Made by a program: the position numbers and the translations under genes. A stretch of DNA of 64,000 nt from Parvimonas sp. (GTDB lineage: Bacteria; Bacillota; Clostridia; Tissierellales; Peptoniphilaceae): NCBI RefSeq assembly GCF_022770425.1, contig NZ_JALEHY010000013.1; one strand, given 5' to 3'. The notes beneath the pieces are model-generated. The model was not told the origin of the DNA. It did not search any database and saw nothing but the letters and a program-made list of their open reading frames with translations. Below, piece by piece: positions 4,137 to 10,050 of the stretch. Each line of letters starts with the position of its first letter. Within the stretch, counting starts at the first letter, position 1.

Positions 4137-5135
4137 ATGAACAGTTTATGGAAAATTTATCATAATGAAATTCCAACATTCATTATGGAATTTGCAAATA
4201 CAAAGGAAATGAAAAGATTAGATGATGTTGGAATGAATTGTGGTTGTGAATATACTAATTTTGAAAAATTTAAAAATTCTAATTATAAAAAATATTCAAG
4301 ATATGTGCACAGTATTTCAGTTGCACTTATTATTTGGCATTTTACAAATGATATGAAACAGTCTTTATCCGGACTATTTCATGATATTGCAACACCTGTG
4401 TTTGCACATACAATTGATTTTTTAAACGGTGACCACGAAACTCAAGAATCAACAGAAGACAATACAAAAGAAATTATAGAAAATTCAAAAGAAATAACAA
4501 ATTTATTGGAAAAATATAATATATCAGTTGATGAAGTTTGTGACTACCATATGTATCCCATAGCAGATAATGACTCTCCTAAACTTTCAGCGGATAGACT
4601 TGAATATTCACTTGGGAATATGTTAAATTACGGATTTACTACATTTGAAAAAGTAAAAGAATTTTATGACGATTTAACTGTATCTGATAATGAAACAGGT
4701 GAAACGGAATTGGTTTTTAAGACAAAGAGTATAGCAATAGAATTTACAGAAAATGTACTTAAAAATTCTCGTTTGTATGTTTCGGATGAAGATAGGGGAT
4801 CTATGCAAAAATTAGCTAATCTTATAAAATATGCGATTGAAGAGTCGGTAATTAGAAAAGAAGATTTGTACAAAACAGAAAAATTTGTAATTGAAAAGTT
4901 GAAAAAATCAGACAAAACGAATTATCTATGGACAAAGTACAGAAGTTATTCAAAAATTAATATTGTAAAAAATGAGTCTGATTTAACCGATTGTATTAAA
5001 GTCTCAGGAAAAAAGAGGTTTATTAACCCTTTTGTAAAAAATGAAGATAGAGTTTCAAAATTATCCGATAAAATTTTTGATAAAATTGAATTTATTAAAA
5101 ATATGAAATTTGACTATTGGATAAGTTTAAACTAA
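4137..5135 (+). CDS. HD-domain metal-dependent phosphohydrolase
   Basis: H...HD signature (HSISVALII ... GLFHDIATPVFAHTIDF). Confidence 0.75.
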   Translation: MNSLWKIYHNEIPTFIMEFANTKEMKRLDDVGMNCGCEYTNFEKFKNSNYKKYSRYVHSISVALIIWHFTNDMKQSLSGLFHDIATPVFAHTIDFLNGDHETQESTEDNTKEIIENSKEITNLLEKYNISVDEVCDYHMYPIADNDSPKLSADRLEYSLGNMLNYGFTTFEKVKEFYDDLTVSDNETGETELVFKTKSIAIEFTENVLKNSRLYVSDEDRGSMQKLANLIKYAIEESVIRKEDLYKTEKFVIEKLKKSDKTNYLWTKYRSYSKINIVKNESDLTDCIKVSGKKRFINPFVKNEDRVSKLSDKIFDKIEFIKNMKFDYWISLN

Positions 5136-5151: not shown

Positions 5152-5490
5152 TGTACATTTGTAAATGATGTGAAACTAAAAATTATAAAAACTATAAAGT
5201 GTATGTTAGAATTAAGTGAGAATTAGGATTTTAGATAAAAGTCTATGAGATTTATCCATAAGAGATTAAATAGAACCATCAAATCCTTTATTCCAACGCA
5301 TAAGAGAAGCTTTAGAAATTTTATATTTTCTATAAACAAAACTAACAGAATTACTATTTTTGTATGTTTTAAGATTATGGTAACTTGTTTGAAGTAAATA
5401 AGGAATATAACATTGACTGTTCTTAATATTTTCTTGATTTTTTATATAATAGCATTCATAAAAGAGCTTTCCTTAATTTATCATACATTT
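5152..5490 (-). mobile_element. decayed IS481-like transposase remnant, copy A (N-terminal HTH part only, no DDE core)
   Basis: Minus-strand translation reads ...NSVSFVYRKYKISKASLMRWNKGFDGSI*SLMDKSHRLLSKILILT*. This shows the HTH and DKSHR(P) pattern of IS481-type transposase N-termini. About 95% identical to 9517-9590 plus 9732-9851. Confidence 0.6.
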
Positions 5491-5531: not shown

Positions 5532-5540
5532 TGCTATAAT
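5532..5540 (+). promoter_or_regulatory. extended -10 promoter (TGcTATAAT) for the cassette
   Basis: TG at 5532-5533, TATAAT at 5535-5540, AAGGAG RBS at 5593-5598 before ATG 5607. Confidence 0.45.
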
Positions 5541-5606
5541 CAATGTAATTTATGGTATTCTTTTAAATTTTTGATATCATAATTAAAAATATATAAGGAG
5601 TTATTT

Positions 5607-6728
5607 ATGAAATTTATATATCCTAAAATACGTAATCATATACTAGTTGTTCCATTTGAAAATAAAATTTCTATAGGTAATACATTGCAATCGACTATTG
5701 AAGTAAAAGAAAATTCAGGTGTAATTAGAGAAATTTTATTTTTGTGTGATGGAACTCGAACAACAAAAGAAATTTTTTATATTGTTTTTAAAAAAGGATT
5801 TGATATTGAATAAAAAGATGTTAGTGATATTATAGATCAAATTTCTGAATATCCATATATTTTTGAAGATGGAAATGATAAAATTTTATATATTGATAAT
5901 AATCTTTTAGAAAGATATAGTAGAAATTTAAATTTTTTATCTAATTTTGATAAAAAAGGAAATAAAAAATATGATTATATAGATAAAATAATAAATTCAT
6001 GTGTTTTAGTATTAGGACTAGGAGGAGTTGGTTCTCCATTAATATATGATTTAGCTGCTTTAGGAGTTGGAAAAATTATTGCTGTTGATTTTGACTTTGT
6101 GGATATTAGTAATTTAAATAGACAAATACTATATAAAGAAAAACATGTTGGAAAAAAGAAAGTTTACTCAGCAAAAGAAACAATTAATGAATTTAATTCT
6201 AATATTGAGTTTATAGCAATTGACAAAAAAATAGACTCGTCTTTAGATGTATTGGATATTTTGGAACAATTCAAACCGGATTGTGTTATTTGTGTAGCAG
6301 ATAAACCACCAATAAAAATTTACAAATGGGTTAATGAAGCTTGTTTTATGAAGAGTATACCTTTTTTATACGGCGGGAATAGTGAGACAACGGCGTATTA
6401 TCATACTGTTATACCTAATATTTCATCTTGTTTTTTGTGCTATGAGAAAAAATTAGAAGAAAATAAAAATAAAGATGGTTATAATAAATATTTATCTATA
6501 TTAAACAATTCTTATTCTACTGAAAATAATTGTACGGCAGCATCATCATCAACTTTAGCTGCATTTATGGCGTTTGATATAGTAAGACTTATTACAGGAG
6601 CTGAAGTTCCATTGTCATTAAATAAGAGGATTCTTATTGATTATAAAACTAATATAATAGATGAAGAGTATGTTGAAAAACAGGATAATTGTGATTTGTG
6701 CTCAAATAATAATTATGATAGGAGGTGA
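5607..6728 (+). pseudogene. PqqD-like RRE domain fused to a ThiF/MoeB/E1-family adenylyltransferase; single frame interrupted by in-frame TAA at 5811-5813
   Basis: ORFs 5607-5813 and 6099-6728 share one frame, and 5814-6098 is open in that frame. N-terminus: ...VIREILFLCDGTRTTKEIFYIVFKKGFDIE*KDVSDIIDQISEYPYIFE (RRE-like). Core: RYSRNLNFL, nucleotide loop VLVLGLGGVGS, DFDFVDISNLNRQ, two CxxC pairs (CFLC, CDLC). There is no in-frame start between the stop and the Gly loop. Confidence 0.65.
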
Positions 6729-6732
6729 ATTT

Positions 6733-6816
6733 ATGAAAATAGTTATTAAACCAATTGATAATGTAGAATTGACTAAAAGAGGAGGTAGAGGAACAGCTGG
6801 AGAGTCAAGATATTAA
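6733..6816 (+). CDS. candidate precursor peptide, 27 aa (not in ORF track)
   Basis: GGAGG at 6721-6725, 7 nt before ATG 6733. MKIVIKPIDNVELTKRGGRGTAGESRY, stop TAA at 6814-6816. It lies between the two RRE-fusion genes. Confidence 0.5.
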   Translation: MKIVIKPIDNVELTKRGGRGTAGESRY

Positions 6817-6822
6817 AAATTT

Positions 6823-7962
6823 ATGAAATATATAATTAATTATGATATAATCACAATGCAAAATTTTGGTGGAAATTATATTATTAAAAATATATTAAAT
6901 GGGAAATCTCTATAAATTAATGAAGATGTATTAGATATCCTTAATTTTATGAAAAATCCATTTTTTATTGAAGAATGCATAAGTAGATTTAACTTAAAAA
7001 ATGAAGAAATGAATTTTATTATTGATGAATTATTAAGAACAGGAATGTTATCTGAATGTGAAAATAATTATATAGATGAAAAATTTTCAAAAACAGATTT
7101 TTCTTTTTTTGATTCTCAAAATATATATAAAGATAATTCTATTTGTATTCTTGGGGTACCTTATGATGGAGGAACTACAGGCGTTTCTGGATGCAAAATT
7201 GCTCCAAATACTTTAAAAAAATTTACTTCAAATTATTCTTATTTATATAATAGAATAGATAAAAAATTTTTTATCTCATACCCTAATATTGATTGTTATA
7301 ATAATCAAAATATTGTTGATCTAGGAAATATTTTAACGATTGCCGGTGAATCGTCATATGATTTACACAATAGACTTGAAATAGCATATAAAAACCATAT
7401 AAAAAATAAAGATAATAAGATAATTGTAGTTGGAGGCGATCATTCAATAACATATCCTATATTAAATTCGTTTGAAGAAGATATTATTTTTTTAAAGTTT
7501 GATGCACATTATGATGATAATTTGATATTAAACAATATTGTAAATCATTCAAATTTTATTAGAAAAATAGAAAATATAAAAAACATAAAAGAGATATATC
7601 ATATTGGAATAAGAGAACCTAGAAAGCCTGGATTAAATATAAATGGAAAAGCAATTACTTCTGATGATATTAGAAATAATAATGCAGAATTAATTTTTGA
7701 AGAATATTTATTGAATAATGCAAATTTTTATATATCTATAGATGTTGATGTTTTTGATCCATTAATTGTTCCGGCAACGGGATATACTTTACCATATGGT
7801 ATAAATTTAGGACAAATATGTAATTTAATAGATTATTTTAATAGAATAGGGAATATAATAGGAGTTGATATAGTTGAATATAATCCATTATTAGATAAGA
7901 ATGATATAACCATGTATACAGTAATGGATTTGTTAAAATATTTAATAAATATATTAACTTAA
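6823..7962 (+). pseudogene. RRE-like N-terminal domain fused to an arginase/agmatinase (ureohydrolase)-family enzyme; in-frame TAA at 6913-6915 (intact ORF 6949-7962)
   Basis: ATG 6823 and ORF 6949-7962 share a frame. N-terminus: MKYIINYDIITMQNFGGNYIIKNILNGKSL*INEDVLDILNFMKNPFFIEECISRFNLKNEEMNFIIDELLRTGMLSE. Ureohydrolase metal motifs are intact: GGDHSITYP, FDAHYDD, SIDVDVFDP. Confidence 0.65.
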
Positions 7963-7981
7963 GAATTTTTAGGAGGCAAGT

Positions 7982-8518
7982 ATGAAAGCACTTTTGGTTC
8001 TTGATTTACAAAAGGGAATAATAAGTCAAAAAAATTTTGATAATACATTGGCTAATATAAAAATATTAATAGACGACTTTAAAAAAAATAATGATATAGT
8101 AATATTAACTAAGCATATATCTAAGTTTGAAGAAAATCCACTATACATTCATGGTAAAGGGGTTGAAATTGAAGATGATTTTGTGAAATTAGCAGATTAT
8201 GTAATAGAAAAAGATAGTTGTAATCCATTTTTAAATACAGATTTGTATAATATTTTATTAAAAAACAATATAACTGATATATACATATGTGGATTTAATA
8301 CAGAATATTGTTGTCTTTTTTCTAGTATAATATCTACTGATAGAGGTTTTAAAACTGTATTTATAGAAGATGCTACAGACACAATTGGAGATGAAGATAT
8401 ATACGAGATGCCAGGATTGGATATTAGAGATTTTATAGGGTCAATTTTAAATTGGTCAGAGTTAGTTGAAGTTTTATATGTATATGAGTACTTAGAATTA
8501 AGAGATTGTAATGAATAA
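7982..8518 (+). CDS. isochorismatase-family cysteine hydrolase
   Basis: AGGAGG RBS. Asp-Lys-Cys triad context: ALLVLDLQKG, ILTKH, YICGFNTEYCC. Confidence 0.8.
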   Translation: MKALLVLDLQKGIISQKNFDNTLANIKILIDDFKKNNDIVILTKHISKFEENPLYIHGKGVEIEDDFVKLADYVIEKDSCNPFLNTDLYNILLKNNITDIYICGFNTEYCCLFSSIISTDRGFKTVFIEDATDTIGDEDIYEMPGLDIRDFIGSILNWSELVEVLYVYEYLELRDCNE

Positions 8519-8732
8519 TTTAGATTTTTAAAATCAGAAATATGATTTAAATGAATATTCAAAAGTATTGTTTTTTAATGATGTTGTTATTATTGATGAA
8601 GAAGATTCAGGGAATATATTTAGGTAGAACAGAAATTAATAAATACATATTAATTCCTAGAATAGGATTAGATATCGTATAATATCAAATTTAATATTTA
8701 ACAAATTTACAGGATTAATTTTTAGTTGTTTT

Positions 8733-9284
8733 TTGATGCTTACATTTTTTATTGGTTTATTTTTATTTAGATATAAATTTATGCCATCTTATTTTGAATA
8801 TTTTTGGCATGATTCACTTATTGTTGTACTTTTAATTTCTCCTATATTTGATTTTATAACTGGAATAACACATGAATTTTTTCATTTTTTAGCTAGTAGT
8901 AAATTTACCTATACATCATCATATTTTTCTATTGGAAGAAGGCTATTAAATGTAGTTTATCAAACAAGGATAAATAATATTTGGTTAATACCAAGAAAAA
9001 GTAGATATTTGATATATTTTTCAGGGATAATTTTAGATTTATTTATTATATGGATTACATTTTATGTTAAATATAATAGTATTATATACAGATTTTCTAG
9101 ATTTGCAATTTTATATTTAGAATTTGGAATAATATTCCAATTTAAATTTTATATGAAGACAGACATTTATTTTTTTATTAGTGATTTTTTAGGTAATCCA
9201 TCATTATATGAAGATTCTATGTCTTTTTTAAAACATATATTTAAAATTGAAAAAAATAAAAATGAATTACTATTATATATTTGA
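8733..9284 (+). CDS. polytopic membrane protein with HExxH motif (M50/site-2-protease-like or DUF3267-like putative zinc peptidase)
   Basis: GITHEFFHFLASS adjoins a hydrophobic segment, and there are several further predicted TM segments. The true 5' end is uncertain: an ATG at 8511 overlaps the upstream stop, but 8511-8732 is broken by stops. Confidence 0.55.
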   Translation: MMLTFFIGLFLFRYKFMPSYFEYFWHDSLIVVLLISPIFDFITGITHEFFHFLASSKFTYTSSYFSIGRRLLNVVYQTRINNIWLIPRKSRYLIYFSGIILDLFIIWITFYVKYNSIIYRFSRFAILYLEFGIIFQFKFYMKTDIYFFISDFLGNPSLYEDSMSFLKHIFKIEKNKNELLLYI

Positions 9285-9481
9285 TATTTATATTGTTGGC
9301 TAGTATAATAGATATGTTGTTTAGTTTGTATTATTTGATTCCGTCATTTAGATATATTTTTGCCAATATCACTGCTGGCGGTGATTTTAAAATTTATGGA
9401 ATCATAACATTATTTTTTTCTTTTATATATTATGGATTTGTATTATATGTTTTTTTAAAAGAAAAAACTAATAAGTTTTAG
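9281..9481 (+). CDS. small 2-TM membrane protein (possibly a frameshifted 3' part of the preceding gene)
   Basis: Hydrophobic 66-aa ORF with a TTG start overlapping the upstream TGA (TTGA). No clear RBS. Confidence 0.3.
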   Translation: MIFILLASIIDMLFSLYYLIPSFRYIFANITAGGDFKIYGIITLFFSFIYYGFVLYVFLKEKTNKF

Positions 9482-9516: not shown

Positions 9517-10050
9517 TGTACATTTGTAAATGATGTGAAACTAAAAATTATAAAAACTATAAAGTGTATGTTAGAATTAAGTGAGAATTAATTTTCATTA
9601 TGAAGATTGTTCCTTAAAAGGATAAATAAATCTTTCACGAGCTGCTTCAATCAAAGAAACGTTAGGATTTCTTCTAATGAGATTTTTAATCCAAAAAATT
9701 TAGGTATCAGTATGAGAATTAGTGAGAATTAGGATTTTAGATAAAGGTCTATGAGATTTATCCATAAGAGATTAAATAGAACCATCAAATATTTTATTCC
9801 AACGCATAAGAGAAGCTTTAGAAATTTTATATTTTCTACAAACAAAACTAACAGAATTACCATTTCTGTTAGTTTTAACGGTATAGTATTGAGAACAAAT
9901 GAGTAATATATCGTTGGTTGAGTTTTATATTTGTTTGATTTAGTGGTATAATATTATTCATAAGAGAGTTCCTTTATAATTAATTTGTTTGTTGTTTTAA
10001 TTATATAGGATATTCTCTTTTTTTGTACATTTGGTCTCACATCAATTGTA
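9517..10050 (-). mobile_element. decayed IS481-like element remnant, copy B (HTH plus adjoining region, at least 2 in-frame stops, DDE core missing)
   Basis: Minus-strand translation reads ...RKYKISKASLMRWNKIFDGSI*SLMDKSHRPLSKILILTNSHTDT*IFWIKNLIRRNPNVSLIEAARERFIYPFKEQSS*. Imperfect terminal inverted repeat between 9525-9541 and 10034-10050 (13/17). Confidence 0.6.

Follow-up and report, generated by a model that had tools for sequence, protein, structure and literature searches.

The window analyzed here, a 64,000-nt stretch of Parvimonas sp. DNA (contig NZ_JALEHY010000013.1), very probably contains a mutation-inactivated copy of a mobile five-gene cassette of the type that makes ribosomally made peptides with post-translational modifications (RiPPs). 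The cassette encodes a 27-aa peptide and four enzymes, three of them with docking domains called RiPP recognition elements (RREs). GC content across the region is 18–27%, and the nearest database proteins come from Parvimonas metagenome-assembled genomes (MAGs) at 99–100% identity. The five genes are arranged as follows (ORF, open reading frame):

5607–6728, plus strand: pseudogene of an RRE-ThiF/MccB-like adenylyltransferase (PF00899, E = 1.2e-45), with an in-frame TAA at 5811–5813 (codon 69) inside the RRE.
6733–6816, plus strand: precursor peptide gene, 27 aa, MKIVIKPIDNVELTKRGGRGTAGESRY, ORF intact, with a GGAGGTG ribosome-binding site upstream and orthologous peptides in relatives.
6823–7962, plus strand: pseudogene of an RRE-arginase-fold enzyme (PF00491 ureohydrolase, E = 9e-46), with an in-frame TAA at 6913–6915 (codon 31) inside the RRE.
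7982–8518, plus strand: isochorismatase-family cysteine hydrolase (PF00857, E = 5.2e-22), ORF intact, without an RRE.
8532–9481, plus strand: pseudogene of an RRE-HExxH membrane protein, a putative intramembrane metalloprotease, in pieces in three frames, located by tblastn with the intact protein of a related locus (L002), HEFFH and MKTD kept.

The original prediction for this region had described ThiF, arginase and isochorismatase domains, a 27-aa peptide ORF with a ribosome-binding site, and a membrane protein with an HExxH motif. Pfam recovered all three domains where they had been placed, GGAGGTG precedes the peptide start, and a membrane ORF with HEFFH is present. The ThiF and arginase frames had also been read as open genes, which is incorrect given the TAA in each, and the two membrane proteins proposed at the right end are pieces of one gene.

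The inactivating lesions were traced by comparison with related loci, cited here by number. Single-frame translations of the ThiF and arginase genes contain one stop each, and both stops cut the RRE in mid-domain. The same positions read GAA (Glu) in relatives, L001 for ThiF and L002 and L010 for arginase, so each stop corresponds to a single G-to-T change. Intact orthologs of the membrane protein are 383–419 aa long, and tblastn with the L002 protein placed the window pieces at 8559–8621, 8611–8679 and 8667–9254. Based on tblastn and three-frame reading, the first ~57 residues survive across two frames and residues ~58–120 (~63 residues) are gone. The body of the protein lies in the 8733 frame, a further frameshift occurs near 9280, and the tail (9281–9481) is in yet another frame. 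The peptide and the hydrolase are the only ORFs left whole. With two RRE enzymes stopped and the protease gene broken, the pathway cannot run in this window.

A sister Parvimonas MAG, GCA_034090885.1 (L019), matches the window at 99.5% identity over 8.5 kb at the same chromosomal position and shares both TAA stops (L019 4779–7142). It is further damaged in two places: ThiF has lost one codon (AASSSTL to AASSTL), and a frameshift leaves the arginase as two ORFs of 154 aa and 187 aa. The same stops in both copies, with more damage in the sister MAG, indicate that decay is ancestral to both and still going on. It is most improbable that the window copy remains functional, either by stop read-through or as split proteins whose catalytic domains begin at internal starts without RREs. 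Long ORFs with intact catalytic motifs do persist downstream of each stop, and the gene annotations of Parvimonas MAGs include them (P0002, 298 aa; P0121, 337 aa). However, TAA is an ordinary stop here, and each of the two stops severs an RRE; in the ThiF-like RiPP enzyme GrcB, removal of the RRE abolished activity (PMC12250964). The frameshifts and ~63-residue loss in the protease gene and the continued decay in the sister MAG argue against function as well. Recoding of TAA was also considered; it was rejected since TAA is the terminal stop of the cassette's own arginase and hydrolase genes. The biological consequence for this window is small, as what it holds is a relic in decay; the intact relatives are of greater interest.

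The precursor peptide ORF sits between the ThiF and arginase genes in every related locus covering that interval, and orthologs were found in L001, L002, L005, L006, L008, L009, L010, L012, L013, L016, L017, L019, L022 and L024. The common pattern is ...[IV]K.[LIV][DN].VE[LM]TKRGGR, followed by 3–5 variable residues and then E-S. Tails after the RGGR motif include NTINPES, NTLNPES, NEAGES, NEVGES and GGDES, and in the Parvimonas/Lagierella clade E-S is extended by R-[YFM] (e.g., GTAGESRY and GGSGESRM). Peptides are ~25–34 residues long; the version on a Macrococcus plasmid is MKIEIVQLNEVELTKRGGRNEVGES, and streptococcal peptides reach 34 aa. Every codon of the nine-residue motif VE(L/M)TKRGGR varies in DNA among copies, and pairwise codon differences total 306 synonymous versus 10 nonsynonymous. 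Such near-exclusively synonymous change marks it as a translated gene under purifying selection. Judged from the sequences, the peptide ORF lies far beyond chance, as it recurs in every related cassette with mostly synonymous changes in its motif. The original prediction had called for a search of other genomes for the short peptide beside homologous ThiF and arginase genes, and every intact or near-intact relative retains it. Double-glycine leader cleavage between KRGG and R was considered and is left as speculation: its spacing is unlike the canonical motif, and the cassette has no C39 peptidase gene.

Three of the four enzymes (ThiF, arginase and protease) carry RREs, and the hydrolase has none. 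This assignment draws on family profiles and models of orthologs, the window's own RREs being interrupted by stops. PqqD-like domains had been proposed at the ThiF and arginase N-termini, and profiles, AlphaFold2 (AF2) models and Foldseek searches of orthologs agree with that proposal; the third RRE, on the protease, had been missed. At the ThiF N-terminus, PqqD (PF05402) matches 18 of the 27 family members and PaaA-like_N matches 12 of 27. The corresponding profile is closest to PaaA (1.2e-9), followed by PqqD, LynD and MusD.

The arginase N-terminal profile matches the N-terminus of TigE, a radical S-adenosylmethionine (SAM) RiPP enzyme, at 4.9e-10. In the AF2 model of an intact ortholog, residues 1–75 (predicted local distance difference test score, pLDDT, ~85) form four short strands in a beta-sheet and then three helices. 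Foldseek searches with this model returned almost exclusively RRE-type domains of RiPP enzymes. TigE was matched at E = 2e-4 with a template modeling (TM) score of 0.73, and further matches were the MccB clamp, lasso B1, TbiB1, CteB, TruD, ThcOx, SuiB, PqqD and PbtF. The designed propeller proteins Tako8 and Ika8, which topped the PDB profile matches of the arginase N-terminus, were discarded as spurious, with no stretch passing the threshold alone.

The protease N-terminus matched the arginase RRE in hhalign at 94.6% and the ThiF RRE at 77.8%. The full-length AF2 model of an orthologous protease (pLDDT 91.3, predicted TM score 0.87) places strands at residues 25–49 and helices at 51–94. Top Foldseek matches of this domain were TbiB1, lasso B1, TigE, CteB and PqqD. 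Target-normalized TM scores to the stand-alone RREs (TbiB1, lasso B1 and PqqD) were 0.7–0.8, the best being 0.75–0.80 to TbiB1 and lasso B1.

The catalytic domains of the three soluble enzymes are well preserved in motif. In the ThiF translation (5607–6728), the PF00899 match covers residues 104–362, and the ATP, Mg and Zn motifs GLGGVG, NLNRQ, ADKP, CFLC and CDLC are present and align to those of MccB. When the intact L002 ThiF was compared with the PDB, MccB (3.5e-30, residues 56–369) and PaaA (2.3e-19) were the best matches. In the arginase translation (6823–7962), the PF00491 match covers residues 106–373, and the Mn-ligand motifs GGDHS, DAHYD and DVDVFDP stand at residues 204, 227 and 307, in line with the intact metal motifs reported earlier. 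Its PDB matches are agmatinases, guanidino-acid hydrolases and arginases. The earlier assignment of this enzyme to the OspR type does not hold: OspR belongs to PF12640, no PF12640 match was found for the window arginase in Pfam, and PF00491, with its classical ureohydrolase motifs, is the family of the KgrD kind. In the hydrolase, D8, K77 and C110 (TEYC) were identified by motif. Its PDB matches are pyrazinamidase/nicotinamidase, cysteine hydrolases and N-carbamoylsarcosine amidase, and TEYC aligned to the catalytic region of PncA. The NCBIfam neighbors of the three enzymes are ThiF/MoeB for the first, agmatinase for the second, and biuret hydrolase, RutB and nicotinamidase for the third; no equivalog cutoff was reached in NCBIfam by any of them.

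The fourth enzyme belongs to a large family of putative membrane proteases. A word-indexed search recovered only 3 relatives, and an exhaustive hidden Markov model (HMM) search was needed to size the family. With a limit of E ≤ 1e-3 it collected 1434 representative clusters, and with E ≤ 1e-30 there were 72. Across 41 relatives, H-E-x-x-H, R212, G240, T289-D290 and Y292 are invariant, and the window protease retains HEFFH and MKTD. NCBIfam matches to daptide_HExxH and YydH/LiaK were weak but specific (1.6e-4 and 7e-4), reaching 3e-10 for relatives. One protein, P0380 (768 aa), fuses a ThiF domain with an RRE-HExxH membrane protease in a single chain, which provides a Rosetta-stone link between the ThiF and protease functions. 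P0285 (854 aa) and P0298 (763 aa), in which the match to the protease profile is confined to the C-terminal half, may be similar ThiF-protease fusions. A ThiF-peptidase fusion has been noted in the literature for the CxxxC clade.

The order ThiF, peptide, arginase, isochorismatase and protease is conserved in L002–L009, L012–L016, L022 and L024. Intact cassettes occur on metagenomic contigs (L002–L005 and L022) and in the genomes of Cytobacillus massiliigabonensis, Streptococcus sp. k-628, S. cuniculipharyngis, S. himalayensis and Alkalibacterium olivapovliticus. Another intact copy is carried by the 62.5-kb circular Macrococcus armenti plasmid pJEK46-1 (NZ_CP083605.1 43085–47194; L024 4491–8600), where the peptide (within L024 5598–5684) is not annotated in the record. 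On the L002 contig, the cassette lies beside a Rep3 replicase and phage-like genes. Degraded copies were found in Lagierella, Heyndrickxia coagulans and Thermosporothrix hazakensis (Chloroflexota). The last of these (L011 1–5258) retains an arginase C-terminus, a split isochorismatase and the protease, interrupted by IS630-like transposase fragments. As this phylum is distant from the Firmicute hosts, the copy implies horizontal transfer followed by decay.

The cassette is rare, with ~26 ThiF clusters at ≥39% identity to the window protein. A protease-pattern scan matched 6 of 185,579 species genomes, and a metagenome scan found 4 loci. These scans undercount owing to their narrow patterns, having missed S. 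himalayensis, H. coagulans and the window's own lineage. A search of a phage collection gave no match. In streptococci, a 288–290-aa HTH_3 (Rgg-like) regulator and a 44–52-aa ORF lie upstream of the operon (L008 3200–4351; L016 3105–4268; L007 5823–6975). This ORF ends in ...IDPGPANIMPK or ...IDPGPANIHMN. It looks like a short hydrophobic pheromone precursor, which suggests quorum-sensing control of the operon.

An RRE-PF00491 arginase (P0141) was also observed outside the cassette, in Sutcliffiella cohnii (L018 678–8484), where its neighbors are a YcaO gene on one side and a major facilitator superfamily (MFS) transporter on the other, and a LanB-like dehydratase follows downstream. The locus is apparently a different, uncharacterized RiPP context for the fusion. 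The company of YcaO and the dehydratase supports the view that RRE-PF00491 fusions are peptide-modifying enzymes.

The claim that this gene set points to leader-guided modification of a ribosomal peptide is supported by the RREs and the conserved peptide, and the combination was not found in the literature searched. We consider it quite possible, if short of probable, that the products of the intact cassettes form a RiPP class of their own. Three RRE-guided enzymes would act on a VELTKRGGR...ES precursor, and the PF00491 arginase and MccB-like ThiF would create a linkage unseen in ribosomal peptides. One candidate is an ornithine-carboxylate macrolactam, and another an acyl-guanidine or acyl-urea intermediate then processed by the isochorismatase-type amidohydrolase. 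In this reading, production would be under Rgg/short-peptide quorum-sensing control in streptococci, and the cassette would spread by plasmids and transposons.

We infer the individual steps and their order as follows. The beta-strand-like leader ...I-K-x-[LIV]-[DN]-x-V-E-L-T-K would be docked in turn by the PqqD-like domains of the three enzymes. The PF00491 ureohydrolase most likely turns one or both arginines of the invariant RGGR into ornithine, with urea released. The MccB-like ThiF would adenylate a carboxylate, that of the peptide's C-terminus or that of the invariant Glu in the closing E-S, and a nucleophile would capture the adenylate. Our best guess for this nucleophile is the new ornithine delta-amine, giving a macrolactam from arginine-to-ornithine conversion plus ATP-driven carboxylate activation, as the original prediction had also suggested. 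The RRE-fused HExxH intramembrane protease would remove the leader. The isochorismatase-type cysteine amidohydrolase might carry out further amide or ureido hydrolysis, or serve in immunity or editing. Ureido and amide groups are what its closest named relatives cleave, which makes an alternative route conceivable; speculatively, the ureohydrolase would cut an acyl-guanidine, and the amidohydrolase would then cut the acyl-urea so formed.

The same hydrolase relatives (biuret hydrolase, RutB, nicotinamidase and N-carbamoylsarcosine amidase) have small amides and ureides as substrates, and they fit another explanation as well. The cassette could build a small molecule or cofactor on a peptide scaffold, as happens for pantocin A, pyrroloquinoline quinone (PQQ) or mycofactocin. 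RGGR and/or E-S would become the excised metabolite, and the arginase and isochorismatase-type enzymes would keep their usual small-molecule-like roles. E-S and RGGR are invariant, with a stretch of changing length and composition between them, which would suit such a product, as would the lack of a dedicated exporter constant in the cassette. The N-terminal half of the ThiF enzyme also aligns to PaaA, which makes a small molecule from internal Glu residues. However, the pantocin EEN motif is absent, and the docking domain on the protease fits the release of a peptide core. We regard a small-molecule pathway as unlikely.

Several observations weigh against the RiPP reading and its macrolactam form. 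Pfam gives no PqqD match at E ≤ 1 on the window's own two N-termini, and NCBIfam gives none either. The match of the protease membrane domain to PF02163/Peptidase_M50 is only E = 2e-3 to 2e-2, below the Pfam cutoff, and a Foldseek search with its model found no convincing structural match (SpoIVFB, E = 2.0). The arginase-fold enzyme could act on a substrate other than peptidyl-Arg, and the lactam model leaves the role of the isochorismatase-type enzyme unexplained. The R-[YFM] extension in Parvimonas/Lagierella changes the C-terminal context, which would then not be conserved if the C-terminal carboxylate is the one activated. No transporter or immunity gene is constant in the cassette.

Outside the genes, two repeats and a promoter-like motif border the window copy:

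5152–5382, no strand assigned: left flanking repeat, remnant of a transposase 5' end (helix-turn-helix, HTH, region; its minus-strand reading contains stops), identified by a direct-repeat match to the right side.
9517–9888, no strand assigned: right flanking repeat of the same transposase-remnant sequence, in two parts (D2, 9517–9590; D1, 9721–9888) with a 130-nt insert between them.
5532–5540, plus strand: extended -10-like motif TGCTATAAT upstream of the first gene, a consensus match only.

The left repeat matches the right one over 74 nt at 100% (D2) and 168 nt at 93% (D1), and the 74-mer of D2 has just two occurrences in the window. Translation of the minus strand gives ...SVSFVYRKYKISKASLMRWNKGFDGSI*SLMDKSHR..., a stop-ridden N-terminus of a transposase HTH. 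The cassette had been described as flanked by insertion sequences (IS), which holds only in the sense that direct repeats with a transposase remnant stand on both sides; whole insertion sequences are not present. In L003, L007/L008, L011 and L017, too, the cassette has whole or fragmentary transposase genes next to it, and L001 has HTH_28 and rve fragments at the same upstream position. The 130-nt segment (9591–9720) between the parts of the right repeat has no counterpart on the left. Directly upstream of the left repeat, a 332-aa ORF (4137–5135) has no domain match beyond one to an HD domain that stays below threshold (E = 6.9e-4). This ORF is kept in the sister MAG and looks like ordinary chromosomal context outside the cassette. 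The extended -10 promoter proposed earlier exists as a motif but is neither statistically meaningful nor conserved in L001: 58 promoter-like sites were found in this AT-rich DNA of 20–25% GC versus 53 expected from shuffles. The promoter and terminator scan was uninformative in such DNA, the lone terminator-like site falling inside the ThiF gene.

ThiF-like enzymes are actively mined for peptide macrocyclization chemistry, with about five reaction types characterized, and peptide arginases are sought as tools to install ornithine. A set that joins ThiF, an arginase and an isochorismatase-type hydrolase, with a docking domain on three of its enzymes, makes a new modification probable. The cassette would also supply an RRE-guided PF00491 arginase for peptide engineering. 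Carriage behind Rgg-type regulators in streptococci and on a Macrococcus plasmid suggests that the product may matter for competition or signaling in host-associated communities.

Among known systems, microcin C and pantocin A share the ATP, Mg and Zn motifs with the cassette ThiF. Among solved structures, MccB is the best match to the catalytic domain plus a portion of the clamp, and PaaA to the RRE at the N-terminus plus half of the ThiF domain. With MccB as the best match of solved structure and both the CxxC Zn pairs and the ATP motifs conserved, a microcin C-type Trojan-horse pathway, in which ThiF attaches a nucleotide to the peptide C-terminus, was considered. It is very unlikely. Unlike microcin C, whose Asn side chain is published as essential for the N-P bond, the cassette precursors have no C-terminal Asn and end in Ser, Tyr, Phe or Met. 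The cassette also has no MccC/D/E/F-like partners, and a survey did not group ThiF clades lacking Asn with microcin C (PMC11256085). In contrast to pantocin A, the EEN motif is absent from all recovered precursors and PaaB/C partners are missing.

The arginase can be compared with two kinds of peptide arginase. KgrD, a Mn-dependent PF00491 ureohydrolase, converts peptidyl Arg to Orn in the Firmicute RiPPs known as enteropeptins, and the cassette enzyme falls in the same Pfam family. However, KgrD has a radical SAM enzyme and a methyltransferase as partners and requires that a thiomorpholine be in place beforehand, whereas the partners here are ThiF and an isochorismatase-type hydrolase. The OspR type (landornamide, selidamides, PbsE, FlmR and OhkR) is a member of the same ureohydrolase superfamily, and the reaction proposed for the cassette enzyme, from peptidyl Arg to Orn and urea, is also its reaction. 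It differs in Pfam family, being PF12640 with DxHxD, EEH(N/H)EAF plus LDIDLDYFSC as its motifs (PMC12703449), and the OspR structure paper makes no mention of an RRE. The protease, ~400 aa long, shares with the daptide and epipeptide (YydH/LiaK) proteases a polytopic membrane topology, HExxH with an invariant Asp downstream of it, and a place in RiPP clusters. It scores far below the curated cutoffs of those families, however, and is a distant relative rather than a member, with a large family of its own.

A further likeness is to the macrocyclizing ThiF-like (TLAT) RiPP pathways of GrcB, EnfB and IndF in Firmicutes, whose characterization also shows that MccB and PaaA are not the only ThiF enzymes in RiPP biosynthesis, as the original prediction had assumed. 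GrcB makes a Glu-Cys thiolactone, EnfB the macrocyclic imide of enterofaecin and IndF an indolylamide. In each, the precursor carboxylate is adenylated and an internal nucleophile closes the ring; the EnfB adenylate is also captured by free amines. The TLAT pathways share with the cassette an N-terminal RRE fused to a ThiF adenylyltransferase, a short ribosomal precursor, and occurrence in streptococci and relatives, often beside Rgg-type regulators and transposons. ThiF proteins of Enterococcus faecalis and Streptococcus pseudopneumoniae, encoded beside MFS transporters, are 33–36% identical to the window enzyme. At the P0094 and P0045 ThiF loci, no convincing small precursor ORF (≥20 aa) was found, and identity as EnfB or IndF was not established. 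Unlike the TLAT precursors, VELTKRGGR...ES falls outside the published ThiF types (WWIII, NWYFI, VEGR, NICxxxK, CxxxC and GxxQY), and the RRE-arginase, isochorismatase-type hydrolase and RRE-protease are not reported with any characterized ThiF RiPP. The ThiF-RiPP and peptide-arginase literature searched, including 2024–2025 and with most subscription papers outside the search, gives neither this enzyme set nor this precursor motif, which agrees with the earlier statement that no described family combines these enzymes. The cassette thus belongs among the ThiF-type RiPP clusters, where it looks like an undescribed family.

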